From: Dictyostelium discoideum
Lineage: Eukaryota
DNA: 64,000 nucleotides
NCBI GenBank assembly: GCA_000004695.1
Contig: CM000154.2
Location: forward strand, 4,448,001-4,512,000
Direction of reading: 5' to 3'
The translations under genes and the position numbers were made by a program. Numbering within the stretch: position 1 is the stretch's first letter; the number at the start of each line of letters is the position of its first letter. The notes beneath the pieces are model-generated. The model saw only the letters and a list, made by a program, of their open reading frames with translations, searched no databases and was not told the DNA's origin. Shown one piece after another: positions 854-38,666 of the stretch.

Positions 854-1384
854 TTAGTTACTGTTACTATTAATATTATTTAAAATGATTGATTCATTAA
901 TTTCCCAATCTTGATGATTATATGAACCAATTGAAATTAATAATTCTTTTGTGCTATTTGACATTTTGAATAAACTATTGATTTTAAAAGTTGATATCAA
1001 TAAATTTTGATTATCATGAATGTGGAATGCTGAATATCTTTTTGATGATTTTCCATTTGATTTTGAAACTAATTTAATCCATTCTTGGTAATCGATTTCT
1101 TTGCAATTAAATTTATTTTCTAAAAACTCATAAATTGATTTCATTTCAATTGAATTACCATTTAAACTGTAAATTGAAATTGGTTTTGATTTATTTTGAT
1201 TCCAACTGTTTTCATTGAATATTAAATCAATTGTGGTTTTAGCTATAGTTGTAATTGGAGTTGTGAAAATTGGTTTATGAATATTTGGATAATAACCAAT
1301 CTCTTTTGAAACTTTTAATAAAAGTGATACGAAATCATTTGAATGACCTATACCTGTTATTGGATTTGAGAATATATCTGAATT

Positions 1385-1475
<91 letters not shown>

Positions 1476-4400
1476 GTAATAATAATATTAATAATAATAA
1501 TAATAAAATGTTTATTTTATTAGAATCTATAAATTTAATATTAAAGGTTAATCATATATTAAATATTACATACCAGGTGGTCTAATAATGATTGATGGTA
1601 TACCTCTTGATTCTGCTGCGTTTGTTAATAATTTCTCTGAAATAACTTTACATTGAATATATCCAATTGGTGTAGTATAAAAATTTGGTAATATATTTGT
1701 TTCTTCAAATGTTTCTCCATCTTTTAATTGATGATTAATAAATACTGCAATTGATGAAAAATGAACTATTAACTTTTGTGAGCTATTATTTGAAACTGAT
1801 AATTTTATAACTTGATTGATGCTGTCAACATTTACAGTTTTACTTTCTTCATAATTTGATTTTAAATTTAAATCTGCTGCTGAATTTATAATAATATCAC
1901 ATTCATTTGAAAGTTTTAAATAATCTTGTTCAGTCAAACCAAATTTATCTTTTGAGACATCACCAATCATTGGAATGATTTTAATTAATTGATCTTCACT
2001 TATTTGTTTATTGTTATTTTCACTGTTTTCAATATTACTATTTAATTTATCATTTGACATATTACCTGTACGATTGATTATTTTTGTTAATCTTTGATTT
2101 GGTGATTCTTTGTTCATATCTATTAATTGATGTTTTTTTAAATTATTAATAATTACATCGATTGGATTTGTTAATTTTGAATTATTTCTAATTAAACAAT
2201 AAATTTTTGAGATATTGTCCATTTTAATTAATTCTGTTAATAAATATGCACCCAAAAATCCTGTTGAACCTGTTAGGAATATTGATTTATTATTATTATT
2301 ATTTAATATATTTTTAATTGAATATGGTCTTGAAATGATTGATTCATTTAATTTAATTTCATTTTTAATAAATTCATCAAGTGATTGTTGTTCTTTTTTA
2401 ACTAAATTGTTATTATTATTGTTATTTTTGTTTTTGTTATTATTGATATGAGCCGATTTAATAATTTCAATTGATTGATTGATTTTATTATTTTGTAATT
2501 GTTGAATTGTGATAAGATTATGACCTATTTGATTATCGATAAAATTCTTTAATTGTACAATCACTAAGCTATCCATACCATATTGTGTGAGTTGAAGGTC
2601 TTCATTGATTTTAGATTCATCAATTGATAATAATTCACAAATCTTATTTAAAATTGTTGAACGAATAATTTCATTATTATCACCACCATTACCACTAGAA
2701 GAAGATTTGATTTGGCTTAATTTTTTAGAAATATTAATTTGATAATCGAATTTTGTTAGGAAATGATTTGTTAAAGTTGATGGTAAAACTTCAAAATTGA
2801 AATCTGATAAGCAATAGTTAGGATATTGATGTTGATTTTGAATGAATAAATCTAATGAACTAATAACGAGTTGAGGTGAGAATAGTTTTAAAATTGAACT
2901 CTTGAACATTGTTTCAATTGCATTATTACGTGATATGAAACCAGTTGATGATATCGCACCTAAATTAATGGCTAAAGATGGTAATCCAATTGAATGTCTA
3001 TACTTTGATAATGAATCGATAACACTACATGCACTAACATAACAACATTGTTGATCTGATCCAAATATTGAAACTATTGATGATGCCATTATAAATTGTT
3101 TGATATTCCATGAACGATTAATTGATTGATTGTGAAGATTGATTGCTCCAATTGTTTTAGCACCATGTGCATTATTTAAACGATTCATATCAACTTGTTG
3201 AACATCACCAATATCATTCATAAATGCAAAATGAATGATTGAATCAATATTTGTAATATTTTCATTTAATTCTAATTGATTTAATACTTGATTAACTTTA
3301 TTTGAATCTTCAATATCGATTTGATTGAAATGGAATTTAATATTATTATCTTTTTTAAATTTGCTTTGATTGATTAATAATTCTAATTCCCATTTTAATT
3401 TTGATTTTGAAAGTATTATAATATTTTCAATTGAATGGTTTGAATATTTAACCAAATATTTTAATATTTCTAAAACAATACCAGTTTGACCAGTGAGTAA
3501 AATATTTTTACCAATATTTAATTTTGAAATATCATATGAATGTTTCATTATGATTTGATTGTTATTACTTTGATAATTATTATAAACTCTATTAAATTCA
3601 TCTTGATTATGATTAACAATGATTTTACCAATATGTTTTCTTTGATTTATATATTCAATTGCATCTTTAAATTGATTATTTGAATATTCAATGATTGGTA
3701 CACTTAACTCTAATTCATTTGAATTGATCATTTTGATAATTTTCTTTAAATAGCTTTTGATTAATTTGCTTGGGAAATCTACGACTTCTACGTTATTGTA
3801 ACCCATATTAAACTTGTAATGATTGTTTGTCATATAATCATTTGGTGTGAGATGGGTGATACTTAAATCAACGATACATCCTGACATATTTAAACATTGG
3901 AAATTTGAATCCATATACTCTGATGATAATGTATTTAATATTATATCTACACCTTGTTGATTTTGTTCAACTACACCTAATTCTATTAATTTATTCTTAA
4001 TCTCGTAAACATAATCTTTATTACGAGATGAATAGATAGCAGTAATTAATGATCCATATTTCTTTGTTAAGTATTCTTCTTTATCTTTTGAACCAACTGT
4101 TAAAAATATATAACCTTGATGTTGTTTACTTTTTAATAAATCTAAAGATGATATACCGACACCACCTGCTGCTGAATGAATTAAAATTGATTCATTTGAT
4201 TTTAAATTACCAATACTATAGATACTATGTAATGATGTAATATAAATAGATGGTATTGATGCTGAAACTGAATGATTATAATTTAATGGTTTATAATAAA
4301 TAAAATTGAAATCTATAATAACATGTGAACTATTTGTTTTTGAACCAATACCACAAACTTGATCACCAACTTTAAATTTCTTTACATTACTACCTAATCT

Positions 4401-7400
4401 TGTAATTATACCACTAAAGTCATTACCAATGTTTGGATTATCAATACCAATACCATTTTCAATTTCATACTCTTTACCATATTTAATATCTAAATCTGTA
4501 CCAATCATGCCAATATACATTAAATAATCTTTATAATTTATACCATTTGCCTTAACTTCTATCTCTACTTCATTTGAATTTAATTCAGCTTTTTTACTAT
4601 ATAATTGATATTCTAAATTTGAATTTAATTGAATATATAAATTATCTTTATTGGTTTCAAATGATTCAGATTGGAATATACTTTTAATATTATTTGATCT
4701 TCTACAATATCTTTCATAGTATACTTTATTATTATTAATTGTAAATTCTTTTTGAATATTATTATTTGGATTGATTAAATAATTGATTAATGATAATTGT
4801 TGATTATTTTCAATTGAAACATTATCATAATTTAAAATATATAAATCTAATTGTGGGAATTCAACGAAATAACGAGCAGCACCAATAATTGATGATGATA
4901 AATAATTATCAGTGCTTGAATTTAATGATAATAATAAATGTTTGAAATTATTTGATAATTCTAATTTTAATATTAATTGATTAATTTGAATGTATTCAAA
5001 TGTGATTTCTTTGAAATTAAAAGTATTCATTGTTGATTCAATTGATTTTAAAAATATTATTAATGTTTTATTACAATCATCTTTATTTTGATTATTTGTG
5101 ATCCATGATTGAAATTCATTATAATTATTAATATTAATGATTTTATGTTTTAATTCTTGATTTGATCTTATTAAATCAAGAATACTACTGCTGCAACTAT
5201 TTCTATTTTTATCATTACTATTATTATTATTGCAAAATAAAATGATATTATTGAAAGAATTTAATTGATCTAATGATATTGATTGTTCTGAAATGATTTC
5301 ATTAATTGTTGGTTTTCTAGTTTGAATTAAAAATAGTAAATTATCATTACCAGACATTATTGTATCTCTATAATTACATTGATTTAAAAGGTTGATCCAT
5401 TTCTCTTGTTTCATACAACATCTATCAGGTCTTAATTCGATATCACTATCAGAGGATGGCCACCATTGTGAAAAACAACCGAAAATTGAATCATAATAAA
5501 ATGATTTGTATGGTGGTTCTATATATAAAAGTTGACCATTTGGTGTTAATATATTATGAATTTCATTTAATGTTGGTTTGAGTTTCTTAACGACATGCAT
5601 AACATTTGACATTACAATGAAATCATAATAGGATGCTTTAAGATCTTGATCTAATAATGGTTTCTCTAAATCTAATACACGATAGATAATATTTAAATTG
5701 TTATGATTTGTAAATGATGAAAACTTTTCTTTAATTTCAGCAAAAAATGATGCAGATACATCACTCCATGTAAATTCTATATTAATGATTGATGTTGTAC
5801 TATTATCGTTTAATAATTTACAAATCTTTTCTAAAATTAATAAACTAAGACTACCAGTACCGCCACCTGCTTCTAATATACGAAATACAATTGGTTCATT
5901 TAAAATTGGTTTTAGAGTTTCGACTATAATTTCACTTAATAAATTATTCAATGGTTGAACTACTCTTGAATTCTTATAAAAGTCATCTAAAAAACCACTT
6001 TCAAATAATGATTGTGGTGTATCTGTAATGGAATCATCATCTTTTAATGGGAATAGCTGTTTTGCCATTATTTTAGTTGTTCTAATATATAACTCTTCAT
6101 GTTTGGATTTAATATTACTGTGATTATTGTCATGGTTAAGAATATTACTATATCTCTTTAAATTTTCAAAAATGAATTTGAAAAGATTTTCATTTGCTAA
6201 ACTATTATAATATAATTGTTTGAATTGATTATATTCTAATGTTGTTAATGATTCTAAATTAATACTTGGAGATCTATTATTAATGTGTTTATAAAATAAT
6301 GACAATAATAATTCATTTGAAATGAATTGATTATCTTCTTCTTTGACACTAAATTCATCCACACTATATAAATGTTTGAATTGTTCAGGTTTGTTAATGA
6401 TAGAATCTTTTAATTGAAGATATGGTGTATAGATATCATTTGATGGTGGCTTACAAATTATTGTGCTATCAGGATTGGAGCCAAGTGAAACTAAAGCGCA
6501 AACTACATTTGAGATATCAACTAATAATGTACCATTTGGAAGTATGACTTTAACTGATACTGAATATGTTTGAGAATTGGTTCTTGGTTTAATATCTGAA
6601 AAAACATATAATTCTTTAATACTATCATCATCACTATTATTATTGTTGTTATTTTTATTTAATAATGGAATATTTGAAGAGTAAAATTTGAAAGCTTCAA
6701 TTTTATCAAGTACGACTGGTTGTGTAACTGCAACTAATGACCCATGTAAACAAGTATCTAAAATTGCTGCATTAAAGAATGTATTCATATTGTTATTGTT
6801 GATCAAATGATTATATTCTTTTTGATTATAAATTTCATTTAATGATACTATTGCTAATGAACAATTATTACCGATATAACATTGTTTTACACCTTGAAAT
6901 AAACCTTTGTATGTTAAATTTGTTTTAATTCTAATAGTTTCATAAAAATCTTGTTTTGACATGCTTGTAAAATTACATTTATCTTTTAATGATTGAATAT
7001 TAATTAATTTGTTACTGGTGATACTGTTATGTTTGGTTAAACTAAAATTACCAAGAGATGATAATATCCATTGATTTGTTTTTTGATCTTTGTAATGACT
7101 TTTAATATTGAATTCATTCTTTGATAATGGTGCAATTATAGTTTGTAAACATTGATTATTACCTTCTGTTAATACTAATGGTGATTTAAATTCTAATGAG
7201 CTAATTGTAATATCTTGATTTGGATAAATTGATAATAAATTATGAACATATCCCATTCCTGGATAATAGAATTTATCACTAACTTGATGACCTTTTAACC
7301 ATTGGAATGGTGATTTCTTGATATCGATAAATGTTTGATATGATAGATATGGTGAATCTGTATTATTACCAAGGTTATTAATGGATGGACCTTCACTTTT

Positions 7401-9226
7401 AATCTTTTCAAGTGATGAGTTTAGTTTAAAGTATTCTTTATCATCCCATTGGTAAAGTGGTAAATTATTTAATTTGGTTGTGTTACTAATGTTGTTGTTG
7501 TCATTGATTAATTGTGATTTGAAATTAATATCAAAATTATTATTGACATATAATAAAGAGATTGTCTTTAAGAATTCATTATAATCATTCTTCTTTTTAT
7601 TTAATGGTGAATAGATTGTAATGTTTTTACCATTATTAAAGTAACTTGATTGAGTTGATTTCATTTGATTTAAGTAATATTGTAATGTTGGATGTGGTGA
7701 AACTTCAATGAATGTAATTTCATTACCCATATCATTTGATTCGATATGTTTGTAAAGATTTGTAATTGTTTGTGTGAAATATACTGGTTGAATAATATTA
7801 TCAAATACATAATTTGCATTGAATGGTGAAGTTTGATGATTGAATAAATTGGTTGTAACTGTTGAAAATACTGCTATCGATGGTTGTTTCGATGAAATAT
7901 TTAATGAACATACTTCATCTTTAATCATTTGTTGACTTGATGTATGAAATGATGATAATGATCCTAACATTGAACAAAAGATATCATTTGATTTGAATTC
8001 ATTGGTAATTTCATTTAATAAGTCTTCATTACCTGCGATAACGATTGATGTTGGTGAATTGTAACATGCAATTTCTAATGATTTATATTTAGTTGTAGAT
8101 TGATATTTATTAATGAATTCATCTGAACTAATATTAACTGATAACATTCTACCTGTACCTGTGGTTCTATTTTGAGCTACTGATCTATGGTAAGTCAAGT
8201 AACATAATGTTTGAAAATCAATCATACCTGAACAATATGGCGATGATACTTCACCAAGAGAATGACCAATGATAATATCTGCTGAAACACCCCAATGTTT
8301 ATATAATTCATAGAGTGATACTTGAATGATAACATTTGCAGGTTGTGCTAAAATTGGTTGATGAATTGATATTAAATCTTTATCATCAATTGATCTTAAT
8401 TTATCTAAAACTGAATAACCATAATATTTGAATAACTCTTTATCGAATCTATTGACAGATTCTCTAAATATTGGTTCATTATCATATAATGATAATGCCA
8501 TTTTATTATATTGTGAACCTTGACCACATAATACCATTACTGTGATTGGTGATTTCTTTTTTTCAACTGTAATATTTGAAATTAAATTATCACTATTATT
8601 TAATTTGATTTGATTGCTTTCATCTTGAAATTCATTCCAATCACTTGCGATTATAACTGATTTTTGAATTAATGATGTTGATTTGAATTTAATTTGATTA
8701 TATACAAATTCTTTGAAACTTGTTGTTGTTGGCGATGAGTTTGAATTTGAATGTTTAATTATTGATGATTTATAATTATTTAATGATGTTGATGAATTGC
8801 TTGAGAGTGGTATTAAATATTTCTTTTTTTCATTTAAATTATTATCAATTTCCATTTTGTGATAACCATTACCATTACCATAACGACTAAGATTATTTTT
8901 AAATTCAGATAATATTAAACAAACATTTGAACCTAAATAAAAATTGATAATTTTAAATTGTTAATATAAGTTATTTGTATAAAAAGTATGTAATGATATA
9001 TTTACCAGTAACACCGAAATTATTAATTAACATGACAGTTGATTTATTTTCATTAAATTTAATTGGTTCAGTGACAACTTTTAATCCCCATTCTTTAAAA
9101 TTAATTAATGGATTTGGTTCTTTGAAATTAATATTTTGAAGAAATAGTTTATTTTTAAACATTAAACAACATTTAATTAATGATGCAACTCCTGAACATG
9201 CTGTTATTATTTATTATTATTTATTT

Positions 9227-9266
<40 letters not shown>

Positions 9267-10868
9267 AATAATATTAAATGTTAGTAATTAATGATTGACT
9301 ATGGTTATTATTGATCTAAGTCTAATTTTTAATTAATTAGCTTACCTTCAGTATGCCCAATATTTGATTTAATTGATCCAATTAAAACTTGTTTATGATT
9401 ATTATTTGTTGTTGCTGGTGCTTTATTGAAAACTCTTGATATACCTTCTAATTCTATTGGATCACCAGTTGGAGTACCAGTACCATGAGTTTCACAATAA
9501 TCAATATCAGATTCATTGATTTGACCATTGGTTGATTTGATTGCTAATTTGATATTTTCATACTGAGATGATTTTGATGGTGAATAAAAGTTTAATTTAT
9601 CAAAATTACCATCGATATTTGAACTTGATCCTTTGATTACACAATAGATATTATTTGAATCTTTGATTGCATCTTTTAATTTCTTTAATACAACGATACC
9701 AACACCTTCTGAACGAACATAACCATCAGCATCCGATGAAAATGTATGACATCTACCTGTTGGACTTAAAAGACCTAATTGTGTAAATGATTTTGAAATG
9801 TGTGGATCTATAAATAAATAAAAATTATTTGATAATTAATATATTTGTTTTAATTTTTTTTTTTTTTTTTTTTTATTTTTTTTTTTTTAATTTTTAAATT
9901 TATCACATACCTAATATAAAATTAACACCACCAACAATTGAAACATTTGATTTATTTGATTTAATTGAATTATATCCACAATTAATTGCATTTGATGAAC
10001 TTGAACAAGCTGTATCAATTGTTAAATTTTCACCTCTATTTTTTATAAAAAAATAATCACGATAATAACAATTAGTATTATAATTAAGTTTTTAGTGTGT
10101 GCCAAAAAAGATAAATCAAAAACATACCTAAAATCAAAGCAATAACCAATTCTATTTGCAACGGAATGAGTTGATGAACCAAAAATATTATTTTGAGTTT
10201 CAAATGATGATTTTTGAAGATTATTATAATCAATAGTACTACTACCAATAAATGTACTTGTATTGGTACCACGTAAACTAATTGGATCAATACCACTATC
10301 TTCTAATGCTTCCCATACACCTGTTTGTTGATTTTATTTTAAAAAACATTATTAATGGGTAAATGAAAAAAAAATGAAAAAAAAAATTTGGTGGTTATTT
10401 TTTATTTTTTTATTTTTTTTTTTTGGTTGGTTTCATTTTTATATTTTTTGGCGCCAAACCTGATGAAAATTTCCAAAACACTTATAATGAATACATACAT
10501 TTTAATAAAAATCTTTGTTGTGGGTCTATTGAACTGACATTATCATTGCTTGGATTAATTGCAAAGAAGATTGGATCAAATTGTTTCCATTCATCAAGTG
10601 GAAGTAAACCAGCAAACTTTGAAGCAATTTCACCATTTAAAAAATAATTATCAGACCATCTTTCAGAAGTTGTAACGATTCCATCCAATCCATTCAATAA
10701 TTCATTAAATAATTGATTTGGTTTGGAAATTGATTCTTTTAAACTACCACTTGGAAATCTTAAACCAATACCAATAACTGCAACATCACCACTACTACCA
10801 GCATCATCATAATCATTTATATCCCTTATTAATTGATTGTAAGTATTATTATCTGTATTTTGTACCAT
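854..10868 (-). CDS. Highly reducing type I polyketide synthase, copy A (KS-AT-DH-cMT-ER-KR-ACP-R), 7 exons, about 3075 aa
   Basis: Exons (minus strand) reconstructed from the ORF track plus GTATGT/GTAAGT...AG splice signals: 10868..10499, 10320..10128, 10035..9911, 9807..9346, 9200..9006, 8932..1574, 1377..854. Phases are consistent across all junctions.
Domain motifs:
- KS: N-terminal [13 protein letters not shown], active-site DTACSSS (exon 3), [12 protein letters not shown] and NIGHTEG (exon 4)
- AT: GQGSQ (about 8511-8525) and GHSLGE (about 8250-8267)
- DH: [15 protein letters not shown] (about 7289)
- C-MT: [13 protein letters not shown]-binding (about 5857-5884)
- ER: HSAAGGVG (about 4160-4185)
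- KR: LLTGQTGIV (about 3480-3510)
- ACP: GMDSL (about 2565-2578)
- terminal reductase: [14 protein letters not shown] (about 2249-2280)
The last intron (1378..1573) holds an (ATT)n microsatellite. Confidence 0.9.
1387..1506. repeat. (ATT/AAT)n microsatellite inside the last intron of PKS-A
   Basis: About 40 perfect trinucleotide units between the donor (GTATGT at 1573) and the acceptor (AG at 1378). The same repeat sits at the same intron position in PKS-C (24705..24800). Confidence 0.9.
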
Positions 10869-11100
10869 TTTCTTTTTTCTTAATAAATTAATATAACAAA
10901 TTAAAATAAAATATAATAAAATAAATGTGATATTTAAAAATTAAAATTAATAGAAAAAAAATAAAAATTAAATTTTATTTTAAACTGTTTAACAATTTTT
11001 AGTTCATATCAAATTAAAATTAAAACTGATATTTTTAACAGTTTTGCTTACAAATTCAAAGAAGATCTGGGTGTGCTGATATTTATTTGGGAAAAATGAT

Positions 11101-11137
<37 letters not shown>

Positions 11138-11650
11138 ACAGATTGCACAGGTATAGTTTAGATTTATTTATTTTTAATTTATATAAAATCAAAATCATAA
11201 TATAACCCCCACTCCCAACATTAATAATTAATTTTATTCTTATTTTAACAATTTTTTTTTTTTTTTTTCATAAAGTTTAATATTTTCGTTGGAATTAATG
11301 ATTGGTTTTAAAATTTATAAAAAAACAGTTTATTGCAACCACATTTGTACAATAATAATTTTATCTTTTTTTTAATTGGAAAATGGTTATCAAAATTCTA
11401 ATAATGAATTTAATTTTTTCTGTTGTTTTAAAACGTTTCAAGTGTGTTTATTTTTAGAAATAATAAAAAGTTTATTAATTAATTAAAAAAAAAAAAAATT
11501 TGGTGGTTGATTTTTTTTTTTTTTTAAAAAAAAGATGTTAAATTTTAACCCAATTCCCCCATTTAAAGATCAATTTATTTTAACAAACAAAACGTTTTTT
11601 TCAATAATTTTTTTTAATATTATTTTATATAAAAAATAGTCCCTACTCTT
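10869..11650. repeat. About 780-bp conserved PKS upstream block (near-identical copy at 34269..35045)
   Basis: The sequence from the ATG of PKS-A to about 11650 is almost base-for-base identical to the sequence upstream of PKS-C. It includes the about-65-bp motif aaactgtttaacaatttttagttcatatcaaattaaaattaaaactgatatttttaacagttttgcttac (10979..11046 and 34381..34448) and a distal about-300-bp module (11281..11595 and 34670..34997). The duplication unit therefore includes about 0.8 kb of 5' flank. Confidence 0.85.
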
Positions 11651-12221
11651 TAAAATAATAAATCATAAAAAATAAAATAAAATAAAATAAAAAAAAAATA
11701 TTTTTTTTTATTTTAGTGATATTACCTTTTTTTATTTGATTTTTATTTAAATTGCCTCGCCGAATTGTTTTCGATTAGTTTTTAAATTTTAAAAAAAATA
11801 TCAAATTCCACTGGAAAATTTATATTATTTTTATCTTTAATTATTTTTTTTGGTAATATAACCATATTTTAATTAAAAAAAAAAAAAAAATAAAAAAAAA
11901 TATTAGAATCAAACCTTTATACTTTTATTTATCAATTAATTTAAAAAAAAGGCACTTTAACAATTGGTGAATAGAATTGTACTATATTAGTTAATAGTTT
12001 TCATGGTGAATCACCAAAATTATTTTTTATATTTAATATCTTAGTTCACATTTTCATAAGATCAAATTTTAGAATTTTATTGTTTGCCATTCATTCTTTG
12101 AAAATGGTTTTTTATTTTAAAGAACAACCAGAAGGGGGTAAATTTTATTTGTGATTTTTATAAAAAAAAAAAAATTAATTCGATTTGATTTATGAACATG
12201 GTCTTCAAATGATTGATTCAT

Positions 12222-15200
12222 TTAATTATTTTTGTTTTTGTTATTACTATTATTTTTATTATTATTATTATTATTATTTTTGTTGTTGTTTTTAGCCGAT
12301 TTAATAATTTCAATTGATTGATTGATTTTATTATTTTGTAATTGTTGAATTGTGATAATATTATGACCTAATTGATTATCGATAAAATTCTTTAATTGTA
12401 CAATCACTAAACTATCCATACCATATTGCGAGAGTTGAAGGTCTTCATTGATTTTAGATTCATCAATCGATAATAATTCACTAATTTTATTTAAAATTGT
12501 TGAATGAATAATTTCATTATTAGCACCACTATTACCACTAGAGAAGGATTTAATTCGATTTGATTTTTTAACAATATTAATTTGATAATCAAATTTTGAA
12601 TGGTATTGATTTGTTAAAGTTGGTGTTAAAACTTCAAAATTGAAATCTGATAAACAGTAATTTGGATATTGATGTTGATTTTGAATGAATAAATCTAATG
12701 AACTAATAACGAGTTGAGGTGAGAATAAATTTACAATTGAACTCTTAAACATTGTTTCAATTGCATTATTACGCGATACAAAACCGGTTGATGATATCGC
12801 ACCTAAATTAATGGCTAAAGATGGTAATCCAATTGAATGTCTATACTTTGATAATGAATCGATAACACTACATGCACTAACATAACAACATTGTTGGTCT
12901 GATCCAAATATTGAGACTACTGATGATGCCATTATAAATTGTTTGATATTCCATGAACGATTAATTGATTGATTGTGAAGATTAATTGCTCCAATCGTTT
13001 TAGCACCATGTGCATTATTTAAACGATTCATATCGACTTGTTGAACATCACCAATGTCTATCATAAATGCAAAATGAATGATTGAATCAATATTTGTAAT
13101 ATTTTCATTTAATTCTAATTGGTTCAATACTTGATTAACTTTATTTGAATCTTCAATATCGATTTGATTGAAATGGAATTTAATATTATTATCTTTTTTA
13201 AATTTGCTTTGATTGATTAATAATTTTAATTCCCATTTTAATTTTGATTTTGAAAGTATTATTATATTTTCAATTGAATGGTTTGAATATTTGATTAAAT
13301 ATTTTAATATTTCTAAAACAATACCAGTTTGACCAGTGAGTAAAATATTTTTACCAATATTTAATTTTGAAATATCATATGAATGTTTCATTATGATTTG
13401 ATTGTTATTACTTTGATAATTATTATAAACTCTATTAAATTCATCTTGATTATGATTAACAATGATTTTACCAATATGTTTTCTTTGATTTATATATTCA
13501 ATTGCATCTTTAAATTGATTATTTGAATATTCAATGATTGGTACACTTAACTCTAATTTATTTGAATTAATCATTTTGATAATTTTCTTTAAATATCTTT
13601 TGATTAATTTACTTGGGAAATCTTCGATATCCACATTACCATAGTTCATATTAAATTTGTAATGATTGTTTGTCATATAATCATTTGGTGTGAGATGAGT
13701 GATACTTAAATCAACGATACGTCCTGATAAATTTAAACATTGGAAATTTGAATCCATATACTCTGATGATAATGTATTTAATATTAAATCTACACCTTGT
13801 TGATGTTGTTCGACTACACCTAATTCTATTAATTTATTCTTAATTTCATAAACATAATCTTTATTACGAGATGAATAGATAGCAGTAATTAATGATCCAT
13901 ATTTATTTATTAAGTATTCTTCTTTATCTTTTGAACCAACTGTTAAAAATATATAACCTTGATGTTGTTTACTTTTTAATAAATCTAAAGATGATATACC
14001 AATACCACCTGCTGCTGAATGAATTAAAATTGATTCATTTGATTTTAAATTACCAATACTATAGATACTATGTAATGTTGTAATATAAATAGATGGTATT
14101 GAGGCTGAAACTGAATGACTACAATTTAATGGTTTATAATAAATAGAATTGAAATCTATAATAACATGTGAACTATTTGTTTTTGAACCGAAACCACAAA
14201 CTTGATCACCAACTTTAAATTTCTTTACATTACTACCTAATCTTGTAATTATACCACTAAAGTCATTACCAATTTTTGGATTATCAATACCAATACCATA
14301 TTCAATTTCTTTACCATATTTAATATCTAAATCTGAACCAATCATACCAATATACATTAAATAGTCTTTATAATTTATACCAGTTGCTTTAACTTCTATC
14401 TCTACTTCATTTGAATTTAATTCATCTTTTTTACTATATAATTGATATTCTATATTTGAATTTAATTGAATATATAAATTATCTTTATTGGTTTCAAATG
14501 ATTCAGATTGGAATTTACTTTTTATATTATTTGATCTTCTACAGTATCTTTCATAGTATACTTTATTATTATTAATTGTAAATTCTTTTTGAATATTATT
14601 ATTTGGATTGATTAAATAATTGATTAATGATAATTGTTGATTATTTTCAATTGAAACATTATCATAATTTAAAATATATAAATCTAATTGTGGGAATTCA
14701 ACGAAATAACGAGCAGCACCAATAATTGATGATGATAAATAATTATCAGTGGTTGAATTTAATGATAATAATAAATGTTTGAAATTATTTGATAATTCTA
14801 ATTTTAATATTAATTGATTAATTTGAATGTATTCAAATGTGATTTCTTTGAAATTTGAAGTATTCATTGTTGATTCAATTGATTTTAAAAATATTATTAA
14901 TGATTTATTACAATTATCTTTATTTTGATTATTTGTAATCCATGATTGAAATTCATTATAATTATTAATATTAATGATTTTATGTTTTAATTCTTGATTT
15001 AATCTTATTAAATCAAGAATACTACTGCTGCAACTATTTCTATTTTTATTATTACTAAATAAAATGATATTATTGAAAGAATTTAATTGATCTAATGATA
15101 TTGATTGTTCTGAAATGATTTCATTAATTGTTGGTTTTCTAGTTTGAATTAAAAATAGTAAATTATCATTACCAGACATTATTGTATCTCTATAATTACA

Positions 15201-18200
15201 TTGACTCAAAAGGTTAACCCATTTCTCTTGTTTCATACAACATCTATCAGGTCTTAATTCGATATCACCATCAGAGGATGGCCACCATTGTGAAAAACAA
15301 CCGAATATCGAATCAAAATAAAATGATTTGTATGGTGGTTCTATATATAAAAGTTGACCATTTGGTGTTAATATATTATGAATTTCATTTAATGTTGGTT
15401 TGAGTTTCTTAACGACATGCATAACATTTGACATTACAACGAAATCATAATAGGATGCTTTAAGATCTTGATCTAATAATGGTTTCTCTAAATCTAATAC
15501 ACGATAGATAATATTTAAATTGTTATGATTTGTAAATGATGAGAACTTTTCTTTAATTTCAGCGAAAAATGATGCAGATACATCACTCCATGTAAATTCT
15601 ATATTAATGATTGATGTTGTACTATTATCATTTAATAATTTACAAATCTTTTCTAAAATTAATAAACTAAGACTACCAGTACCACCACCTGCTTCTAATA
15701 TACGAAATACAATTGGTTCATTTAAAATTGGTTTTAGAGTTTCAACTATAATTTCACTTAATAAATTATTCAATGGTTGAACTACTCTTGAATTCTTATA
15801 AAAGTCATCTAAAAAACCACTTTCAAATAATGATTGTGGTGTATCTGTAATAGAATCATCATCTTTTAATGGGAATAACTGTTTTGCCATTATTTTAGTT
15901 GTTCTAATAAATATCTTTTCAATTTTTGGCTTAATATTACTTTGATTATTGTCATGGTTAAGAATATTACTATATCTCTTTAAATTTTCAAAAATGAATT
16001 TGAAAAGATTTTCATTTACTAAACTATTATAATATAATTGTTTAAATTGATTATATTCTAATGTTGTTAATGATTCTAAATTAATACTTGGACATCTATT
16101 ATTAATGTGTTTATAAAATAATGACAATAATAATTCATTTGAAATAAATTGATTATCTTCTTCGTTGACACTAAATTCATCCACACTATATAAATGTTTG
16201 AATTGTTCAGGTTTATTAACTACTGAATCTTTTGATTGAAGATATGGTGTATAAATATCATTTAATGGTGGTTTACAAATTATAGTACTATCAGGATTGG
16301 AGCCAAGTGAAACTAAAGCGCAAACTACATTTGAGATATCAACTAATAATGTACCATTTGGAAGTATGATTTTGACTGATATTGAATATGTTTGATAATT
16401 GGTTCTAGGTTTAATATCTGAAAAAACATATAATTCTTTAATATCATCATTATTGTTGTTTTCATTTAATGATGGAATATTTGAAAAGTAATATTTGAAA
16501 CCTTCAATTCTATCAAGTACGACTGGTTGTGTAACTGCAACTAATGACCCATGTAAACAAGTATCTAAAATTGCTGTATTTAAGAATTTATTCATATTGC
16601 TATTGTTGATTAAATGATTATATTCTTTTTGATTATAAATTTCATTTAATGATACTATTGATAATGAACAATTATTACCGATATAACATTGTTTTACACC
16701 TTGAAATAAACCTTTGTATGTTAAATTTGTTTTAATTCGAATAGTTTCATAAAAATCTTGTTTTGATATGCTTGTAAAATTACATTTATCTTTTAATGAT
16801 TGAATATTAATTAATTTGTTACTGATGATACTGTTATGTTTGGTTAAATTAAAATTACCAAGAGATGATAATATCCATTGATTTGTTTTTTGATCTTTAT
16901 AATGACTTTTAATATTGAATTCATTCTTTGATAGTGGTGCAATTGTAGTTTGTAAACATTGATTATTACCTTCTGTTAATACCAATGGTGATTTAAATTC
17001 TAATGAGCTAATTGTAATATCTTGATTTGGATAAATTGATAATAAATTGTGAACATATCCCATTCCTGGATAATAGAATTTATCACTAACTTGATGACCT
17101 TTTAACCATTGGAATGGAGATTTCTTGATATCGATAAATGTTTGATATGATGGATATGGTGAATCTGTATTATTGCCAAGACTATGAATGGATGGACCTT
17201 CACTTTTAATCTTTTCATGAAATGAAGCAATTTTAAAGTATTCTTTATCATCCCATTGGTAAAGTGGTAAATTATTTAATTTGGTTGTGTTACTAATGTT
17301 GTTGTTGTCATTGATTAATTGTGATTTGAAATTAATATCAAAATTATTATTGACATATAATAAAGAGATTGTCTTTAAGAATTCATTATAATCATTCTTC
17401 TTTTTATTTAATGGTGAATAGATTGTAATGTTTTTACCATTATTAAAGTAACTTGATTGAGTTGATTTCATTTGATTTAAGTAATATTGTAATGTTGGAT
17501 GTGGTGAAACTTCAATGAATGTAATTTCATTACCCATATCATTTGATTCGATATGTTTATAAAGATTTGTTATTGTTTGTGTGAAACGAACTGGTTGGCG
17601 AATATTTTCAAATGCATAATCTGCATTGAATGGCAAGCTTTGATGATTGAATAAATTGGTTGTAACTGTTGAAAATACTGCTATCGATGGTTGTTTTGAT
17701 GAAATATTTAATGAACATACTTCATCTTTAATCATTTGTTGACTTGATGTATGAAATGATGATAATAATCCTAACATTGTACAAAAGATATTATTTGATT
17801 TGAATTCATTGGTAATTTCATTTAATAAGTCTTCTCTACCTGCGATAACGATTGATGTTGGTGAATTGTAACATGCAATTTCTAATGATTCATATTTAGT
17901 TGTAGATTGATAGTTATTAATGAATTCATCTGAACTAATATTAACTGATAACATTCTACCTGTACCTGTGGTTCTATTTTGAGCTACTGATCTATGGTAA
18001 ATCAAGTAGCATAATGTTTGAAAATCAATCATACCTGAACAATATGGTGATGATACTTCACCAAGAGAATGACCAATGATAATATCTGCTGAAACGCCCC
18101 AATGTTTATATAATTCATAGAGTGATACTTGAATGATAACATTTGCAGGTTGTGCTAAAATTGGTTGATGAATTGATATTAAATCTTTATCATCAATTGA

Positions 18201-20561
18201 TCTTAATTTATCTAAAACTGAATAACCATAATATTTGAATAACTCTTTATCGAATCTATTGACAGATTCTCTAAATATTGGTTCATTATCATATAATGAT
18301 AATGCCATTTTATTATATTGTGAACCTTGGCCACATAATACCATTACCGTGATTGGCGATTTCTTTTTTTCAACTGTAATATTTGAAATTAAATTATCAC
18401 TATTTTCTAATTTGATTTGATTATTTTCATCTTGAAATTCATTCCAATCACTTGCGATTATAACTGATTTTTGAATTAATGATGTTGATTTGAATTTAAT
18501 TTGATTGTGTACCAATTCTTTGAAACTTGTTGTGGTTGTTGGCGATGAGTTTGAATTTGAAAGTTTAATTATTGATGATTTATAATTATTTAATGATGTT
18601 GATGAATTGCTTGAGAGTGGTATTAAATATTTCTTTTTTTCATTAACTTTACTATCAATTTCAATTTTGTGATATTCATTTTCATAACGATTATGATGAT
18701 TTTTTTTTAATTCAGATAATATTAAACAAACATTTGAACCTAAATTAAAATTGATAGTTTTAAATTATTAATATAAGTTATTTGGAATCATTAATGATGT
18801 ATATTTACCAGTTATACCGAAATTATTAACTAACATGACAGTTGATTTATTTTCATTAAATTTAATTGGTTCAGTGACAACTTTTAATCCCCATTCTTTA
18901 AAATTAATTAATGGATTTGGTTCTTTGAAATTAATATTTTGAAGAAATAGTTTATTTTTAAACATTAAACAACATTTAATTAATGATGCAACTCCTGAAC
19001 ATGCTGTTATTATTTATTATTATGAAAAATATTTAATGTTAGTAATGATTTATAGCTCTAAAGTTAATTAATTAACTTACCTTCAAGATGTCCAATATTT
19101 GATTTAATTGATCCAACTAAAACTTGTTTATTATTATTTATTGTTGTTGATGGTATTTTAGCACTATTGAAAACTCTTGAAATACCTTCTAATTCTATTG
19201 GATCACCAGTTGGAGTACCAGTACCATGAGTTTCACAATAATCAATATCAGATTCATTGATTTGACCATTGGTTGATTTGATTGCTAATTTGATATTTTC
19301 ACACTGAGATGATTTTGATGGTGAATAAAAGTTTAATTTATCAAAGTTACCATCGATATTTGAACTTGATCCTTTGATTACACAATAGATATTATTTGAA
19401 TCTTTGATTGCATCTTTTAATTTCTTTAATACAACGATACCAACACCTTCTGAACGAACAAAACCATCAGCATCTGATGAAAATGTATGACATTTACCTG
19501 TTGGACTTAACATATCTAATTGGGTGAACGATTTTGAAATGTGTGGGTCTATAAATAAAATTTTTTTGATAATTAATATATAATTCTAAAATTTTCTTTT
19601 TTTTTTTTTCAAATTTATCACATACCTAATATAATATTAACACCACCAACGATTGAAACATTTGATCTATTTGTTTTAATTGAATTATATCCACAATTAA
19701 TTGCATTTGATGAACTTGAGCAAGCTGTATCAATTGTTAAATTTTCACCTCTATTTTTAAAATAACAATTAGTATTTAAGTTTTATTCTTCCAAAAAAGA
19801 TAAATCAAAACATACCTAAAATCAAAGCAATAACCAATTCTATTTGCAATTGAATGAGTTGATGAACCAAAAATATTATTTTGAGTTTCAGATGGTGATC
19901 TTTGAAGATTATAATAATCAATAGTACTATTACCAATAAATGTACTTGTATTGGTACCACGTAAACTAATTGGATCAATACCACTATCTTCTAATGCTTC
20001 CCATACACCTGCATGTTTGTTAATTTTATTTTAAAAAACATTATTAATGGGTAAATAAATAAATAAATAAAATAAATAAATAAATAAATAAATAAAAGAA
20101 AAAAAAAATTTTGGTGGGTTCATTTTTTTTATTATTTATTTTTGGCCAAACCTGATGAAAATTTCCAAAACACTTAATAAATACATACATTTTAATAATA
20201 ATCTTTGTTGTGGGTCTATTGAACTGACATTATCATAAGTTTGATTAATTGCAAAGAAGATTGGATCAAATTGTTTCCATTCATCAAGTGGAAGTAAACC
20301 AGCAAACTTTGAAACGATTTCACCATTTAAATAATAATTATCAGACCATCTTTCAGAAGTTGAAACGATTCCATCCAATCCATTCAATAATTCATTAAAT
20401 AATTGATTTGGTTTTGAAATTGATTCTTTTAAATTACCACTTGGAAATCTTAAACCAATACCAATCACTGCAACATCACCATCATCATTTCTATCAACAT
20501 CATCATCATCATTTCTATCCCTTATTAATTTATTATTATTATTATCTATATTTTGTGTCAT
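12222..20561 (-). CDS. Type I polyketide synthase, copy B (KS-AT-DH-cMT-ER-KR-ACP), lacks the terminal reductase domain; 6 exons, about 2623 aa
   Basis: Exons: 20561..20189, 20008..19816, 19750..19626, 19548..19081, 19003..18809, 18739..12222. Exon lengths (373/193/125/468/195) match copies A and C. The large exon is near-identical to A and C through the ACP, then stops (TAA at 12222-12224) inside the poly-Asn linker (...[25 protein letters not shown]). In A and C this linker connects ACP to the R domain. Sequence 3' of the stop (12221..11650) has no similarity to the R domain or last exon. Confidence 0.85.
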
Positions 20562-20574
20562 TTTCTCTTTTTAC

Positions 20575-20695
20575 AAATAAATAAAATAAAATAAAATAAA
20601 ATAAAATAAAATAAAATAAAATAAAATAGAATAAAATAGAATAAAATAGAATAAAATAGAATAAAATAGAATAAAATAAAATAAAATAAATAAAT
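20575..20695. repeat. (AATAAAATAG/AATAAAAT)n minisatellite immediately upstream of the PKS-B ATG
   Basis: Tandem ataaaataaa / ataaaataga units. Confidence 0.8.
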
Positions 20696-21890: not shown

Positions 21891-21975
21891 TTTTTTATTT
21901 CATAATTTAAATAGTTTTTTTTTAAAAAAACTTTAATATAAAAGATTCTCAATTTATATATTTTATAATATTACA

Positions 21976-23730
21976 ATGAATACAATATTTACAATTATTT
22001 TAACAATTACAATATTAGTATTATCATTAATATTAAAAGTAAAATTTTAAAATATTATATATATTATTGACTATTAAAAATTAAACACTTACTTATACTT
22101 TTATTTTTTTAAATAGGATTTATTATTTGAAGGTAGGATTAAAAAAATTAATAAATTAATACCTGGTCCTTCTACAATTCCAGTTTTTGGTAATTTATTA
22201 CAAATTAACGCAAAAGATTTCCCAAAAAGTGTAAATGATTTCTATGAAAGATATGGCAAAGTTTTTAGATTAAGATTGGGTAGTGTTGAAATTGTTGTTC
22301 TAACTGGACCTGAAGTTATTGATGAATGTTTTAATAAAAAACATAGAGAAATTTTCAAAGAAAGATATATTAAATTCTCAAGATTTTTGGGTAAAGATTA
22401 TAATATTTTTTCTTCAAATGGTGATTATCATTATGTTCTAAGAGGAATTCTTACAAGTGAAATTACAACAAGAAAGTTAAATAATGGCAGATTAGAATCA
22501 AATAAATTTATTTTAGAAATGTTTAGTAATCTTTGTAAAGATAATAAAGAAACTCTTGTTAAAAATACACCAAATCAAATTAGGATTCTTGCTGTTAAAT
22601 TAATATTAAATTTCACATTAGGAATTGAAGAGAATGACGAAACCATTCTAATCATTGTAGAAAAGATTAAATGCATTTTTGAAGCTGCTGGATTATTAAT
22701 TTACTCTGATTATTTACCATTTTTATTTCCATTAGATATAAAATCAATGTCAAAGAATGATATTATTTCTAGTTACTTTTTTATAAAAGATTTTATAGGT
22801 ATAAAACTTGATGCTATTAAAATTAAATATGAAAAAGAAAATGAATTGAAAAATGAAACTACTGATGAAACATCTTCAAAACTAAACAATATTCCAATTA
22901 TTGAGAATTATTATAAAAATTATTTAGATGGTTCAATTCATTATGATTCAATCTTGTTTTCAATTTCTGATATTATTTTTGCAGCAGTTGATTCAACATC
23001 CAATGGGTTTAGTCTTTTAATTGGTCAATTAATTAATAAACCTGAAATTCAAGATAAAATATATGAAGAAATCATGAGAAATGATGAAAATAATAATACA
23101 AATAATATATCATTTGCTGATCATACAAAATATCCATATATTATTTCTGTAATGAATGGTAATTATCCATATATATATATATATATTGGTATTAATATGT
23201 GTTGATATATTTTTTCAAAAAATAAATTTTGTATTAATTTGAATAATAGAATCATATAGATATAATTCTTCAGTACCAATAACTGAACCGAATAAAACAA
23301 CAGAAGATGTTGAAGTAAATGGATATAAAATTGCAAAAGGTACAATGATAATTAAAAATCTTCGTGGTACACATTTATCAAAAGAGTTTTGGGGTGAAGA
23401 TGCTTTAGAATTTAAACCAGAAAGATTTAAAAATCAACCTTTAAATCAAAAAGGACTTTTTCATTTTGGTGCAGGTATGTTTTAAACTATTTTGAAATGG
23501 GAATCAAAATTTATCACTAATACAATAATAAATATTATTTTATTTAAACAGGAGCTAGAGCTTGTCCAGGAGGAAGATTTACAGAATCTTTTACTTTTAC
23601 TTTTTTGGTGATAATGTTAAAGAATTTTAAAATAGTCAATCCAACTGATATTCCAATTGATGTTGAAGGAGAAGTTGGTTTGGCAATGCAATGTAAACCT
23701 TTTGATGCCTTATTCATAAAACGTAATTAA
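21976..23730 (+). CDS. Cytochrome P450 monooxygenase, 4 exons
   Basis: Exons approx 21976..22038 (MNTIFTIILTITILVLSLILK membrane anchor), 22117..23158 (IPGPSTIPVFGNLLQI..., ORF 22276..23205), 23249..23474, 23552..23730. The spliced product carries the heme-binding signature FHFGAG/GARACPGGRF across the exon 3-4 junction and ends ...KPFDALFIKRN*. Transcribed divergently from PKS-B; the two ATGs are about 1.4 kb apart. Confidence 0.85.
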
Positions 23731-24162: not shown

Positions 24163-34268
<10,106 letters not shown>

Positions 34269-34536: not shown

Positions 34537-35049
34537 AGATAGATTGCACAGGTATAGTTTAGATTTATTTATTTTTAATTTATATAAAATCAAAATCATA
34601 ATATAACCCCCACTCCCAACATTAATAATTAATTTTATTCTTATTTTAACAATTTTTTTTTTTTTCAGTTTAATATTTTCGTTGGAATTAATGATTGGTT
34701 TTAAAATTTATAAAAAAACAGTTTATAAATTTATTGCAACCACATTTGTACAATAATAATTTTATCTTTTTTTTAATTGGAAAATGGTTATCAAAATTCT
34801 AATAATGAATTTAATTTTTTCTGTTGTTTTAAAACGTTTCAAGTGTGTTTATTTTTGGAAATAATAAAAAGTTTATTAATTAATTAAAAAAAAAAAAAAA
34901 AAATTGGTGGTTGATTTTTTTTTTTTTTAAAAAAAAGATGTTAAATTTTAACCCACTTCCCCCATTTAAAGATCAATTTATTTTAACAAACAAAACTTTT
35001 TTTTTCAATATTTTTTTTTAATTTTATTTTTTATAAAAAATAGTCCCTG

Positions 35050-37527
35050 TTATTAATTAATTGTGATTTGAAATTCATATTTAAATTATTATTGACAAAT
35101 AATAAAGAGATTGTCTTTAAGAATTCATTATAATCATTCTTCTTTTTATTTAATGGTGAATAGATTGTAATGTTTTTACCATTTTTAAAGTAACTTGATT
35201 GAGTTGATTTCATTTGATTTAAGTAATATTGTAATGTTGGATGTGGTGAAACTTCAATGAATGTAATTTCATTACCCATATCATTTGATTCGATATGTAT
35301 ATAAAGATTTGATATTGTTTGTGTGAAACGAACTGGTTGGCGAATATTTTCAAATGTATTATCTGTATTCAATGGCAAGCTTTGATGATTGAATAAATTG
35401 GTTGTAACTGTTGAAAATACTGCTATCGATGGTTGTTTCGATGAAATATTTAATGAACATACTTCATCTTTAATCATTTGTTGACTTGATGTATGAAATG
35501 ATGATAATAATCCTAACATTGTACAAAAGATATTATTTGATTTGAATTCATTGGTAATTTCATTTAACAAGTCTTCTCTACCTGCGATAACGATTGATGT
35601 TGGTGAATTGTAACATGCAATTTCTAATGATTCATATTTAGCTTTAGATTGATATTTATTAATGAATTCATCTGAACTAATATTAAATGATAACATTCTA
35701 CCTGTACCTGTGGTTCTATTTTGAGCTACTGATCTATGATAAGTCAAGTAACATAATGTTTCAAAATCAATCATACCTGAACAATATGGTGATGATATTT
35801 CACCAAGAGAATGACCAATGATAATATCTGCTGAAACACCCCAATGTTTATATAATTCATAGAGTGATACTTGAATGATAACATTTGCAGGTTGTGCTAA
35901 AATTGGTTGATGAATTGATATTAAATCTTTATCACCAATTTATCTTAATTTATCTAAAACTGAATAACCATAATATTTGAATAACTCTTTATCGAATCTA
36001 TTGACAGATTCTCTAAATATTGGTTCATTATCATATAATGATAATGCCATTTTATTATATTGTGAACCTTGGCCACATAATACCATTACTGTGATTGGTG
36101 ATTTCTTTTTTTTCAACTGTAATATTTGAAATTAAATTATCATTATTTTCTAATTTGTCCAATATTTGATTTAATTGATCCAACTAAAACTTGTTTATTA
36201 TTATTTGTTGTTGTTGTTGTTGATGGTATTTTAGTATTATTGAAAACTCTTGATATACCTTCTAATTCTATTGGATCACCAGTTGGAGTACCAGTACCAT
36301 GAGTTTCACAATAATCAATATCAGATTCATTGATTTGACCATTGGTTGATTTGATTGCTAATTTGATATTTTCACACTGAGATGATTTTGATGGTGAATA
36401 AAAGTTTAATTTATCAAAGTTACCATCGATATTTGAACTTGATCCTTTGATTACACAATAGATATTATTTGAATCTTTGATTGCATCTTTTAATTTCTTT
36501 AATACAACGATATCAACACCTTCTGAACGAACAAAACCATCAGCATCCCATCAAAATGTATGAAATTTACCTGTTGGACTTAACATATCTAATTGGGTGG
36601 ATGATTTTGAAAGGTGTGGGTCTATAAATAAAAATTATTTGATAATTAATATATAATTCTAAATTTTTCTTTTTTTTTTCAAATTTATCACATACCTAAT
36701 ATAAAATTAACACCACCAACAATTGAAACATTTGATTTATTTGATTTAATTGAATTATATCCACAATTAATTACATTTGATGAACTTGAACAAGCTGTAT
36801 CAATTGTTAAATTTTCACCTCTATTTTTAAAATAACAATAAAGTTTTATTGTTCCAAAAAAGATAAATCAAAACATACCTAAAATCAAAGCAATAACCAA
36901 TTCTATTTGAGATGGAATTAGTTGATGAACCAAAAATATTATTTTGAGTTTCAAATGGTGATCTTTGAAGATTAGAATAATCAATAGTACTATTACCAAT
37001 AAATGTACTTGTATTGGTACCACGTAAACTAATTGGATCAATACCACTATCTTCTAATGCTTCCCATACACCTGCATGTTTTTTGATTTTATTTTAAAAA
37101 ACATTATAAATAAATAAATTAAATAAATAAATAAATAAATAAAAGAATTGAAAAAAAAAAATTTTGGTGGGTTCATTTTTTTTATTATTTATTTTTTTGG
37201 CCAAAAAACACTTAAAAAATACATACCTTTAATAATAATATTTGTTGTGGGTCTATTGAACTGACATTATCATAAGTTGGATTAATTGCAAAGAAGATTG
37301 GATCAAATTGTTTCCATTCATCAAGTGGAAGTAAACCAGCAAACTTTGAAACGATTTCACCATTTAAATAATAATTATCAGACCATCTTTCAGAATTTGT
37401 AACGATTCCATCCAATCCATTCAATAATTCATTTAATAATTGATTTGGTTTGGAGATCGATTCTTTTAAATTACCACTTGGAAATCTTAAACCAATACCA
37501 ATCACTGCAACATCACCATCATCATTT
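35050..37527 (-). pseudogene. Decayed PKS fragment (KS exons 1-4 plus part of the AT region) with an internal deletion, in-frame stops and a truncated 5' end
   Basis: ORFs 37212..37505 ([13 protein letters not shown]... KS N-terminus, truncated upstream of DDGDVAV) and 35031..35774 (AT-domain segment). Exon 2/3/4 homologs lie at about 37075-36165. Exon 4 carries a stop (...PTGKFHTF*WDAD, about 36545). At about 36164 the exon-4 homolog is fused directly to sequence from the start of the AT region; exon 5 and the 5' part of exon 6 are deleted. The AT part has a stop (DKLR*IGDKDL, about 35940). The 3' end is joined abruptly at about 35050 to the conserved PKS upstream block (aaaaatagtccct|gttatt...). 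Confidence 0.8.
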
Positions 37528-38666
37528 CAAAAAAAAACGAAACAAAGAAATAAACGAGAATTTATACATATAATAAATAAATCACTGTTATATCTTCACC
37601 GCCACATTCATTCCTCTTAATTTTACCCTATTTTTGCTCAATAAAGCAAGGGCTATCGTCCTATATACTTTTCAACAATGGCTGATTATCACTCAACTGA
37701 ATTACAGTTAAATCATACAGATAACAACACAACCAATACAAATAGTACCTCCACAACCTCAACAACAAAAAACAAAAGTGCAAAAATCGACACACCTAAA
37801 AAACAAAGGACTTGATAATCAATTAGATATCATTGCACCTCCATCAATCACAAGACCACTCTCTTTCTTAGAAAAAAACAATAACACCATCAACATTAAG
37901 TGTTACTTTAATCAACCACACATCCGTGAAGAATTAAACTCTATAGATGACACAAGAATTCAACAAATTCACAAAAACATTCACAAACTCTTGGAAGATA
38001 TACTGTCGCCATCAGCATTTAAAATAATTGGTGCAACTGCCTTCGTAAATTGCAACGTCGATAAATTAACTTCAATAATCAACCTTCAAAACCAACTTGC
38101 ACTAAATATCGATAAACTCAACTATAGATTCGAAATATCATCAAATGATTATGCAATCATTAAAACATTCATTCAAACGACTCACCCAAACATGCAAACT
38201 ATGCAATTATAAACAACCTCACCAAATTCTCTAGTTGTACATCAATTAAATCATTTACTGTCACATACTCATATGCTGTTGCGTTTAAAAGCTACATTAT
38301 AACATATCATCTAATTGATCACACACACAACATTGTTGATCAAAAGATCGAACAACCATCTGGTATCACAAGATATATCAAAGCTGCAACACGTAGTATC
38401 ACTAAACACAAAATTCAACATGCAAAAAATGCAGATATGGCAACAACTATAAAAAATGCCCTCACAAACCCAAATATTAACAAAAACAATCAACCACCAA
38501 AAAACAACATTAACACCCCACCAATCAACGAAATTGCAAATTCCAATCGCAATAATAACCCACTTCAAAATAGTGTTTCAAAAGCTACACTAAATGAATT
38601 ACTTGATATTAACAATCAATCCCAAAACAATAATTAAATTTCACGCAAATGTGATTCTTCAAATAA
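37528..38666 (+). mobile_element. Retrotransposon-like fragment (A/C-rich sense strand, frameshifted ORFs), probably a degenerate non-LTR (TRE-type) element 5' portion; its right end is lost in an assembly gap
   Basis: Composition changes abruptly from about 80% AT to A/C-rich, T-poor sequence exactly where the PKS pseudogene exon 1 breaks off (about 37527). Open frames in two phases (MADYHSTELQLNH...*, then 37778..38212 MQKSTHLKNKGLDNQ..., then 38437..38637) are typical of a decayed ORF1 of a Dictyostelium non-LTR element. Family assignment is not possible from memory. Confidence 0.45.

Follow-up and report, generated by a model that had tools for sequence, protein, structure and literature searches.

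Fungal highly reducing polyketide synthases such as LovB and LovF are iterative enzymes with the order KS-AT-DH-MT-ER-KR-ACP, and their chains are removed by separate enzymes (LovG and LovD). A survey of the 40 synthases of Dictyostelium discoideum found offloading domains 3' of the ACP on 21 of them; two of these domains are chalcone synthases and the remaining ones are probably thioester reductases. The other 19 have no C-terminal release domain (PMC12828403). In that survey the role of principal fatty acid synthase falls to Pks16, which was modelled from KS to ACP, and Pks5 is named the dictyodene synthase (PMC12828403). With 19 of 40 synthases lacking a release domain, an ACP-terminated highly reducing synthase is thus nothing unusual in this organism. 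We take Pks5 and Pks16 to belong to these 19, going by protein lengths and by comparison with the architectures that the survey describes. The gene considered here, pks31 (PKS-B), likewise ends at its ACP and has no built-in release domain. Unlike Pks16 and Pks5, it is a recent offshoot of a reductase-bearing lineage, in which 35 nt of the reductase start persist as a scar.

The window, by which we mean the whole stretch of 64,000 nucleotides that was analysed (contig CM000154.2 of assembly GCA_000004695.1, positions 4,448,001 to 4,512,000), has a GC content of about 22% and contains several large, near-identical genes that lie clustered on the minus strand. In the exon models for A, B and C each splice junction has one GT..AG solution that keeps the frame. 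The genes and the parts of pks31 to which we refer below are as follows.

854..10868, minus strand: PKS-A, which is pks30 (DDB_G0290701), 7 exons, 3075 aa, an exact match to UniProt Q54FQ2; terminal-exon ORF 1566..8855
1574-2405 together with the last exon, 854-1377, minus strand: reductase of PKS-A (NAD_binding_4)
12222..20561, minus strand: PKS-B, which is pks31 (DDB_G0290703), 6 coding exons, 2623 aa, KS-AT-DH-MT-ER-KR-ACP
20561-20189, 20008-19816, 19750-19626, 19548-19081, 19003-18809 and 18739-12222, minus strand: exons of pks31, with GT..AG junctions
12222..18515, minus strand: terminal-exon ORF of PKS-B
12258..12533, minus strand: complete ACP domain of pks31, aa 2521-2612 (Pfam ACP_SdgA_C, profile positions 3-94 of 95, E=7.7e-33)
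12225..12293, minus strand: Asn/Lys-rich tail of pks31 (AAT/AAC/AAA repeat); its homolog in A and C is the linker between ACP and reductase
21976..23727, plus strand: cytochrome P450 cyp514A4, divergent from pks31, the synteny anchor for other genomes
24163..34268, minus strand: PKS-C, 7 exons, 3101 aa, with reductase, last exon 24163-24695; terminal-exon ORF 24870..32219
about 59456 to the end of the window, plus strand: a fourth synthase

PKS-C is probably pks32, going by protein lengths. Within the window the neighbours of pks31 are a P450, an O-methyltransferase and a class-III aminotransferase.

The translation of PKS-B is exactly that of XP_635590.1 / UniProt Q54FQ1, the 'Probable polyketide synthase 31' of D. 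discoideum AX4, so that the short gene model of 2623 aa is already part of the public annotation. Pfam places KS at residues 29-412, AT at 585-908, Methyltransf_12 at 1466-1581, ADH_N and ADH_zinc_N_2 at 1894-2212, KR at 2251-2434 and the ACP at 2521-2612; DH_N at 973-1061 reaches 26.2 bits, slightly below the cutoff of 27 bits. By architecture, with seven domains detected by Pfam in the expected order, pks31 is an iterative highly reducing type I PKS. Its catalytic motifs (DTACSSS, ETHGTGT, NIGHLE, GHSLGE, GGGTGS and GMDSL) are intact in the translation, GHLE in place of GHTE being a frequent variant of the KS motif. The Ser of GMDSL to which phosphopantetheine is attached is residue 2561 (12411-12413). 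The protein stops 11 residues beyond the Pfam match to the ACP, at a TAA in 12222-12224.

The closest relatives of pks31 are next to it. Pks30 and PKS-C, both KS-AT-DH-MT-ER-KR-ACP-TR, resemble B from about 95 bp 5' of the ATG through the ACP at 92-95% DNA identity, as the initial annotation had said in claiming near-identity up to the ACP, and they share with B the structure of exons 1 to 6, the cluster and the strand. The individual alignments give 92.6% between B and A over 12193-20656 and 95.4% between B and C over 12224-16466. RNA-seq reads may map ambiguously among paralogs as similar as pks30, pks31 and PKS-C.

Unlike these two, B is without the whole thioester reductase, about 450 aa encoded by the last part of exon 6 and the entire exon 7. 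The reductase of A and C runs to ...IIRPP, where an intron with an (ATT)n repeat separates it from the seventh exon. NAD_binding_4 (PF07993), the thioester-reductase type of release domain, is found in the tail of A with E=7.8e-46; Pfam gives no match to PF07993 in pks31, which is hence not a thioester-reductase-terminated PKS. A tblastn search with the 452-aa reductase of A recovered both parts in A and in C and none in 10800-12221, where the best match has E=1.3 and lies on the wrong strand. Earlier statements that B is a natural variant without a release domain, that it has no seventh exon and that nothing resembling the reductase follows it are all borne out by these searches. The same is true of the statement that the Asn-rich linker differs in length (15 aa in A, 22 aa in C), and this linker is indeed a hypervariable microsatellite.

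The place of the break is a different matter. Two claims had been made here, namely that the truncation lies inside the poly-Asn microsatellite and that unrelated sequence follows directly after the stop of B. Neither agrees with the pairwise alignment of the tail of B with A and C. The features of this region are as follows.

12193..12227, minus strand: remnant, 35 nt long, of the beginning of the reductase region, containing the TAA of pks31 and read in a shifted frame
11752..12192, minus strand: 3' sequence of B without counterpart in A or C
10869..11751, minus strand: upstream flank of A, 95% identical to the upstream flank of C up to 11644

The Asn run of B is followed by AATTAAATGAATCAATCATTTGAAGACCATGTTCA (12227 down to 12193), and 33 of these 35 bases are identical to A and C, where the counterpart is the codons directly ahead of the nucleotide-binding motif of the reductase. 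The local alignment score of this remnant is 62. None of 300 composition-preserving shuffles came up to this value; they averaged 33 and scored 53 at most. Homology to A and C therefore ends at about 12192, some 30 nt beyond the stop, past the repeat and within ordinary, non-repetitive sequence of the reductase start. The TAA itself derives from TTA-AAT (Leu-Asn) codons read in the shifted frame, and B lacks about 45-60 nt of coding sequence that are present in A and C. Read in the A/C frame, B has a C>G change that produces a TGA seven codons later.

The end of B shows at least two changes, a deletion in the linker with a frameshift and a distal break. The initial annotation had the release domain lost by recombination or deletion in a repetitive linker. 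The distal break lies outside the AAT/AAC repeat; the Asn repeat may have helped the smaller linker deletion, whose junction such simple sequence does not allow to be placed. In the 3' flank of B, AATAAA motifs occur 73, 106 and 141 nt beyond the stop (12144-12149, 12111-12116 and 12076-12081). A search for this flank at other loci at first returned low-complexity matches alone; its homology to the flanks in wild strains was spotted by eye and then seen with BLAST.

We fetched the same place in other Dictyostelium assemblies, with cyp514A4 as the anchor. GCA_054883475.1 is 99.98% identical to the window over 28.3 kb that include the 3' end of pks31, with one mismatch and one gap, and its gene calls come in the same order (3101 / P450 / 2623 / 3075). 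De novo assemblies from Nanopore and Illumina reads, AX2 among them, have been published (PMC12745789). We infer that GCA_054883475.1 is one of these, and the same paper would connect the locus-tag prefixes of the assemblies to the strains AX2, CR116C/OT3A and M4B/S6B.

The two wild, diverged D. discoideum assemblies, ACTFIR and ACTFIW, also have a gene without reductase at this position, and in each of them it is damaged. The order in ACTFIR is a pks30-type gene (3075 aa), a short synthase remnant, the P450 and a 3103-aa synthase; the remnant stops at the Asn repeat, has no reductase, carries a CAA>TAA nonsense codon in the tail of the ACP and has lost 3.65 kb, the equivalent of B 13455-17108. 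The order in ACTFIW is the P450, a 2244-aa synthase and a 3070-aa pks30 ortholog. Here the short gene, again without reductase, ends in poly-Asn followed by SSIHHENN*, and an in-frame deletion of 1149 bp (383 codons; B 16395-17543) takes out the end of the AT and the DH. Both assemblies join the Asn repeat straight to the AX4 sequence at 12011 and below, so that positions 12012-12206 are missing and the 35-nt scar, kept in AX4, is lost. Since both wild orthologs are damaged, and differently, pks31 is evidently not required.

Outside these strains, in 'D. cf. discoideum' ACTFIZ, the gene next to the P450 is an intact reductase-less synthase of 2600 aa, and within about 270 bp of its end comes a stretch with weak similarity to the upstream flank of A. 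Between B and this gene dS is 0.118 and dN/dS 0.39. Its tail resembles codons of the reductase start, but 38 of 300 shuffles score as well, and a distal breakpoint common to ACTFIZ and AX4 is suggestive only. In 'D. cf. discoideum' ACTFIY the P450-adjacent gene has 3083 aa and, judged by this length, a reductase. The D. citrinum locus is rearranged, with P450s interleaved with PKS fragments that keep the reductase, and no clear counterpart of pks31 was found there; hence the distribution of the short gene seems limited to the discoideum clade.

That this clade shares a gene without reductase at one and the same position argues for one old event. Together with the scar that contains the stop codon, the shared synteny argues for a reductase that was lost once, long ago, in a reductase-bearing lineage. 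The patterns of derived sites do not allow the orthology of the AX4 and ACTFIZ short genes to be proven, because paralogs within a genome share more of them (40 sites between two ACTFIZ paralogs) than positional orthologs do (10 sites between the AX4 and ACTFIZ short genes). One of the two possibilities offered in the initial annotation, a very recent pseudogene, is wrong in its timing: the reductase-less state is found at the same syntenic position in GCA_054883475.1, ACTFIR, ACTFIW and ACTFIZ.

How did the short gene originate? An old rearrangement took away everything from the start of the reductase region onward and joined pks31 to sequence leading into the upstream flank of the next synthase. 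In our opinion, this was probably a tandem duplication of the unit 'upstream flank + gene up to reductase start', which would at a single stroke yield a short copy followed by a full one. Such a duplication fits because the upstream flank of A (10869-11751) is itself a diverged copy, 64-67% identical, of the upstream flank of B (20562-22038); no P450 coding remnant was found when we looked for one in the flank of A. An in-place deletion would look similar and is, to us, the less probable origin. A second copy of the B type adds to this picture.

35048..37528, minus strand: fragment E, a piece of a B-type PKS pseudogene, about 2.5 kb

Fragment E is nearest to B (97.2% and 93.3% identity), and it adjoins the upstream flank of C just as B would adjoin that of A if 11645-17305 were deleted. 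From this junction it seems that a pair, 'short synthase + full synthase', was duplicated as a block. The difference between flanks at 64-67% and coding regions at 92-95% identity further points to coding bodies that, unlike the flanks and tails, undergo concerted evolution across the paralogs.

Is the gene in AX4 still functional? It has no stop and no frameshift in 2623 codons (7.87 kb). For the 173 substitutions private to B, 11.8 stops would be expected under neutrality with B's own mutation spectrum, and none is seen (P=8e-6). The synonymous fraction of these substitutions is 0.36, against 0.24 for neutral change (p=2e-4). Along the B lineage dN/dS is 0.43, the highest value of the three paralogs (A has 0.25 and C 0.32), and its excess sits in the KS-AT third. 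A pseudogene is expected to carry disabling mutations or to evolve neutrally. Neither applies to pks31 of AX4; the ACTFIR ortholog is a pseudogene by this definition and the ACTFIW ortholog arguably one.

Our main reading, to which we would give a probability of roughly 55%, is that pks31 is a working but dispensable ACP-terminated synthase, a paralog of the reductase-ending pks30 and PKS-C, which is offloaded in trans. The enzyme would be made in AX4 and would build a reduced, possibly methylated chain on its own ACP. This chain would then be taken off by hydrolysis or by a separate acyltransferase or thioesterase, and not by a reductase of pks31's own. The initial annotation had proposed that B would need a partner in trans for release, which is a reasonable idea, and trans-type offloading of this kind would likewise have to apply to the remaining ACP-terminated synthases of D. 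discoideum, for example Pks16. In architecture pks31 is like LovB and LovF; no candidate for a trans-acting thioesterase or acyltransferase was identified in the window. Given release other than by a reductase, the product of pks31 would exit as an acid or an acyl conjugate, as opposed to the products of pks30 and PKS-C, for which an aldehyde or alcohol is expected. Finally, the gene would be dispensable and in the course of being lost in some wild strains.

The strongest alternative is that pks31 is a relic without function that lost its release domain long ago. Its body in AX4 would then owe its intact look to repeated gene conversion by pks30 and PKS-C, and the other strains would show what really becomes of the gene. 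Gene conversion could indeed keep a dead copy looking intact and lower its apparent dN/dS. The signs of concerted evolution described above (coding regions more alike than flanks, and within-genome paralogs sharing more derived sites) agree with this explanation, as do the independent large deletions in the two wild D. discoideum assemblies, with a nonsense codon in one of them, the fate of fragment E, a B-type copy already reduced to a 2.5-kb stump in AX4, and the dN/dS of B, the highest of the three paralogs. However, the 173 B-private substitutions have survived conversion and there is still no stop among them. The diverged sister lineage has an intact reductase-less gene of 2600 aa, evolving at a dN/dS of 0.39 relative to B. 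A missing release domain is in itself not disabling, as 19 of 40 synthases are without one (PMC12828403), and a single-sentence statement in PMC12625978 lists pks31 among the transcripts that change during aggregation. On balance we find the relic explanation possible but doubtful.

We hold it to be very improbable that pks31 cooperates with its neighbours, by forming a dimer or by transient docking, so that its ACP is unloaded by the reductase of pks30 or PKS-C; the initial annotation had named the R domain of the neighbouring paralogs as one possible partner. These synthases act as dimers. The regions of KS, DH and ER that form dimers are near-identical among the three, the genes are adjacent and on the same strand, and B has a complete ACP whose sequence is close to that of A and of C. 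On the other hand, the reductases are described as appendages tethered behind the ACP, most likely as monomers (PMC12828403), and many other ACP-terminated synthases of Dictyostelium have no such paralog from which to borrow. As for an artefact of assembly or annotation in which a reductase exon was missed or misplaced, we give it hardly any credence: tandem paralogs more than 92% identical do misassemble easily, but GCA_054883475.1 has the same sequence apart from one mismatch and one gap in 28.3 kb, tblastn finds nothing reductase-like in the 1.35 kb ahead of the pks30 start, and three other genomes have a reductase-less gene at the same place.

The gene is already annotated, its short architecture is public and its kind is common in D. 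discoideum; the presence or absence of the reductase tail across the 40 Dictyostelium synthases has also been surveyed (PMC12828403). The details that are new, namely the out-of-frame scar, the old shared loss, the polymorphism among strains and the concerted evolution, are context rather than discovery. It could further be supposed that selection has kept the de-tailed pks31, for its changed end group (an acid or acyl conjugate) or for use of the neighbours' reductase in trans as a heterodimer. We consider this improbable; were it true, the intact and broken wild alleles would be a natural on/off polymorphism for one metabolite. The added value is in our opinion modest and evolutionary: pks31 has stayed intact in some lineages while breaking independently in others, and the trio of pks30, pks31 and PKS-C provides a natural comparison for the role of the terminal reductase in product release by amoebal synthases.

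Based on our comparison of the three paralogous synthase genes, pks30 (A), pks31 (B) and PKS-C (C), their coding regions are 92-95% identical, whereas the upstream flanks (10869-11751 against 20562-22038) share an identity of only 64-67%. Further, derived sites are shared more among paralogs of the same genome than among positional orthologs of different genomes. Taken jointly, this gap in identity and the sharing of derived sites within a genome are strong signs of gene conversion restricted to the coding bodies of A, B and C.

There is also a partial copy, whose nearest relative is pks31:

35048-37528, minus strand: fragment E, a 2.5-kb PKS piece containing the KS exons and part of the AT

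At 35047|35048 this fragment meets the upstream flank of PKS-C, in a layout that is the pks31-pks30 arrangement minus 11645-17305. Given this match, it is suggested that a pair of the kind "short PKS + full PKS" was duplicated as a block. The leftmost stretch of the window, 1-296, is similar to the PKS genes in their 5' flank and initial codons (74% to 10853-11132), and a further synthase gene probably begins here and runs leftwards.

In two assemblies from wild D. discoideum, the ortholog of pks31 has lost internal sequence, and the deletion differs between the two:

ACTFIW, L010 1616-8971: in-frame internal deletion of 1149 bp
ACTFIR, L004 4504-8926: internal deletion of 3.65 kb and a CAA>TAA nonsense codon

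A single 3' junction is common to both orthologs, and AX4 12012-12206 is missing there. In one assembly of 'D. cf. discoideum' (ACTFIY) the synthase adjoining the P450 gene has 3083 amino acids (L005 1-8486), thus, judged by its length, it carries the reductase. Such a gene could represent the ancestral condition; alternatively, unequal crossing-over could have fused pks31 and pks30.

In the reductase coding region of the two reductase-ending synthases, the last intron is mostly a long (ATT)n microsatellite:

1387-1520: last intron of pks30
24704-24804: last intron of PKS-C

Next to these synthases lie the following genes:

39859-41174, plus strand: O-methyltransferase with Dimerisation and Methyltransf_2 domains
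41219-42469, minus strand: class-III aminotransferase

The aldehyde from reductase release could be transaminated to an amine, hence the cluster might yield polyketide amines.

In D. citrinum (L008) three P450 genes are interspersed with PKS fragments of short length, and KR and NAD_binding_4 are retained in one of these fragments. The cluster turns over fast from species to species.
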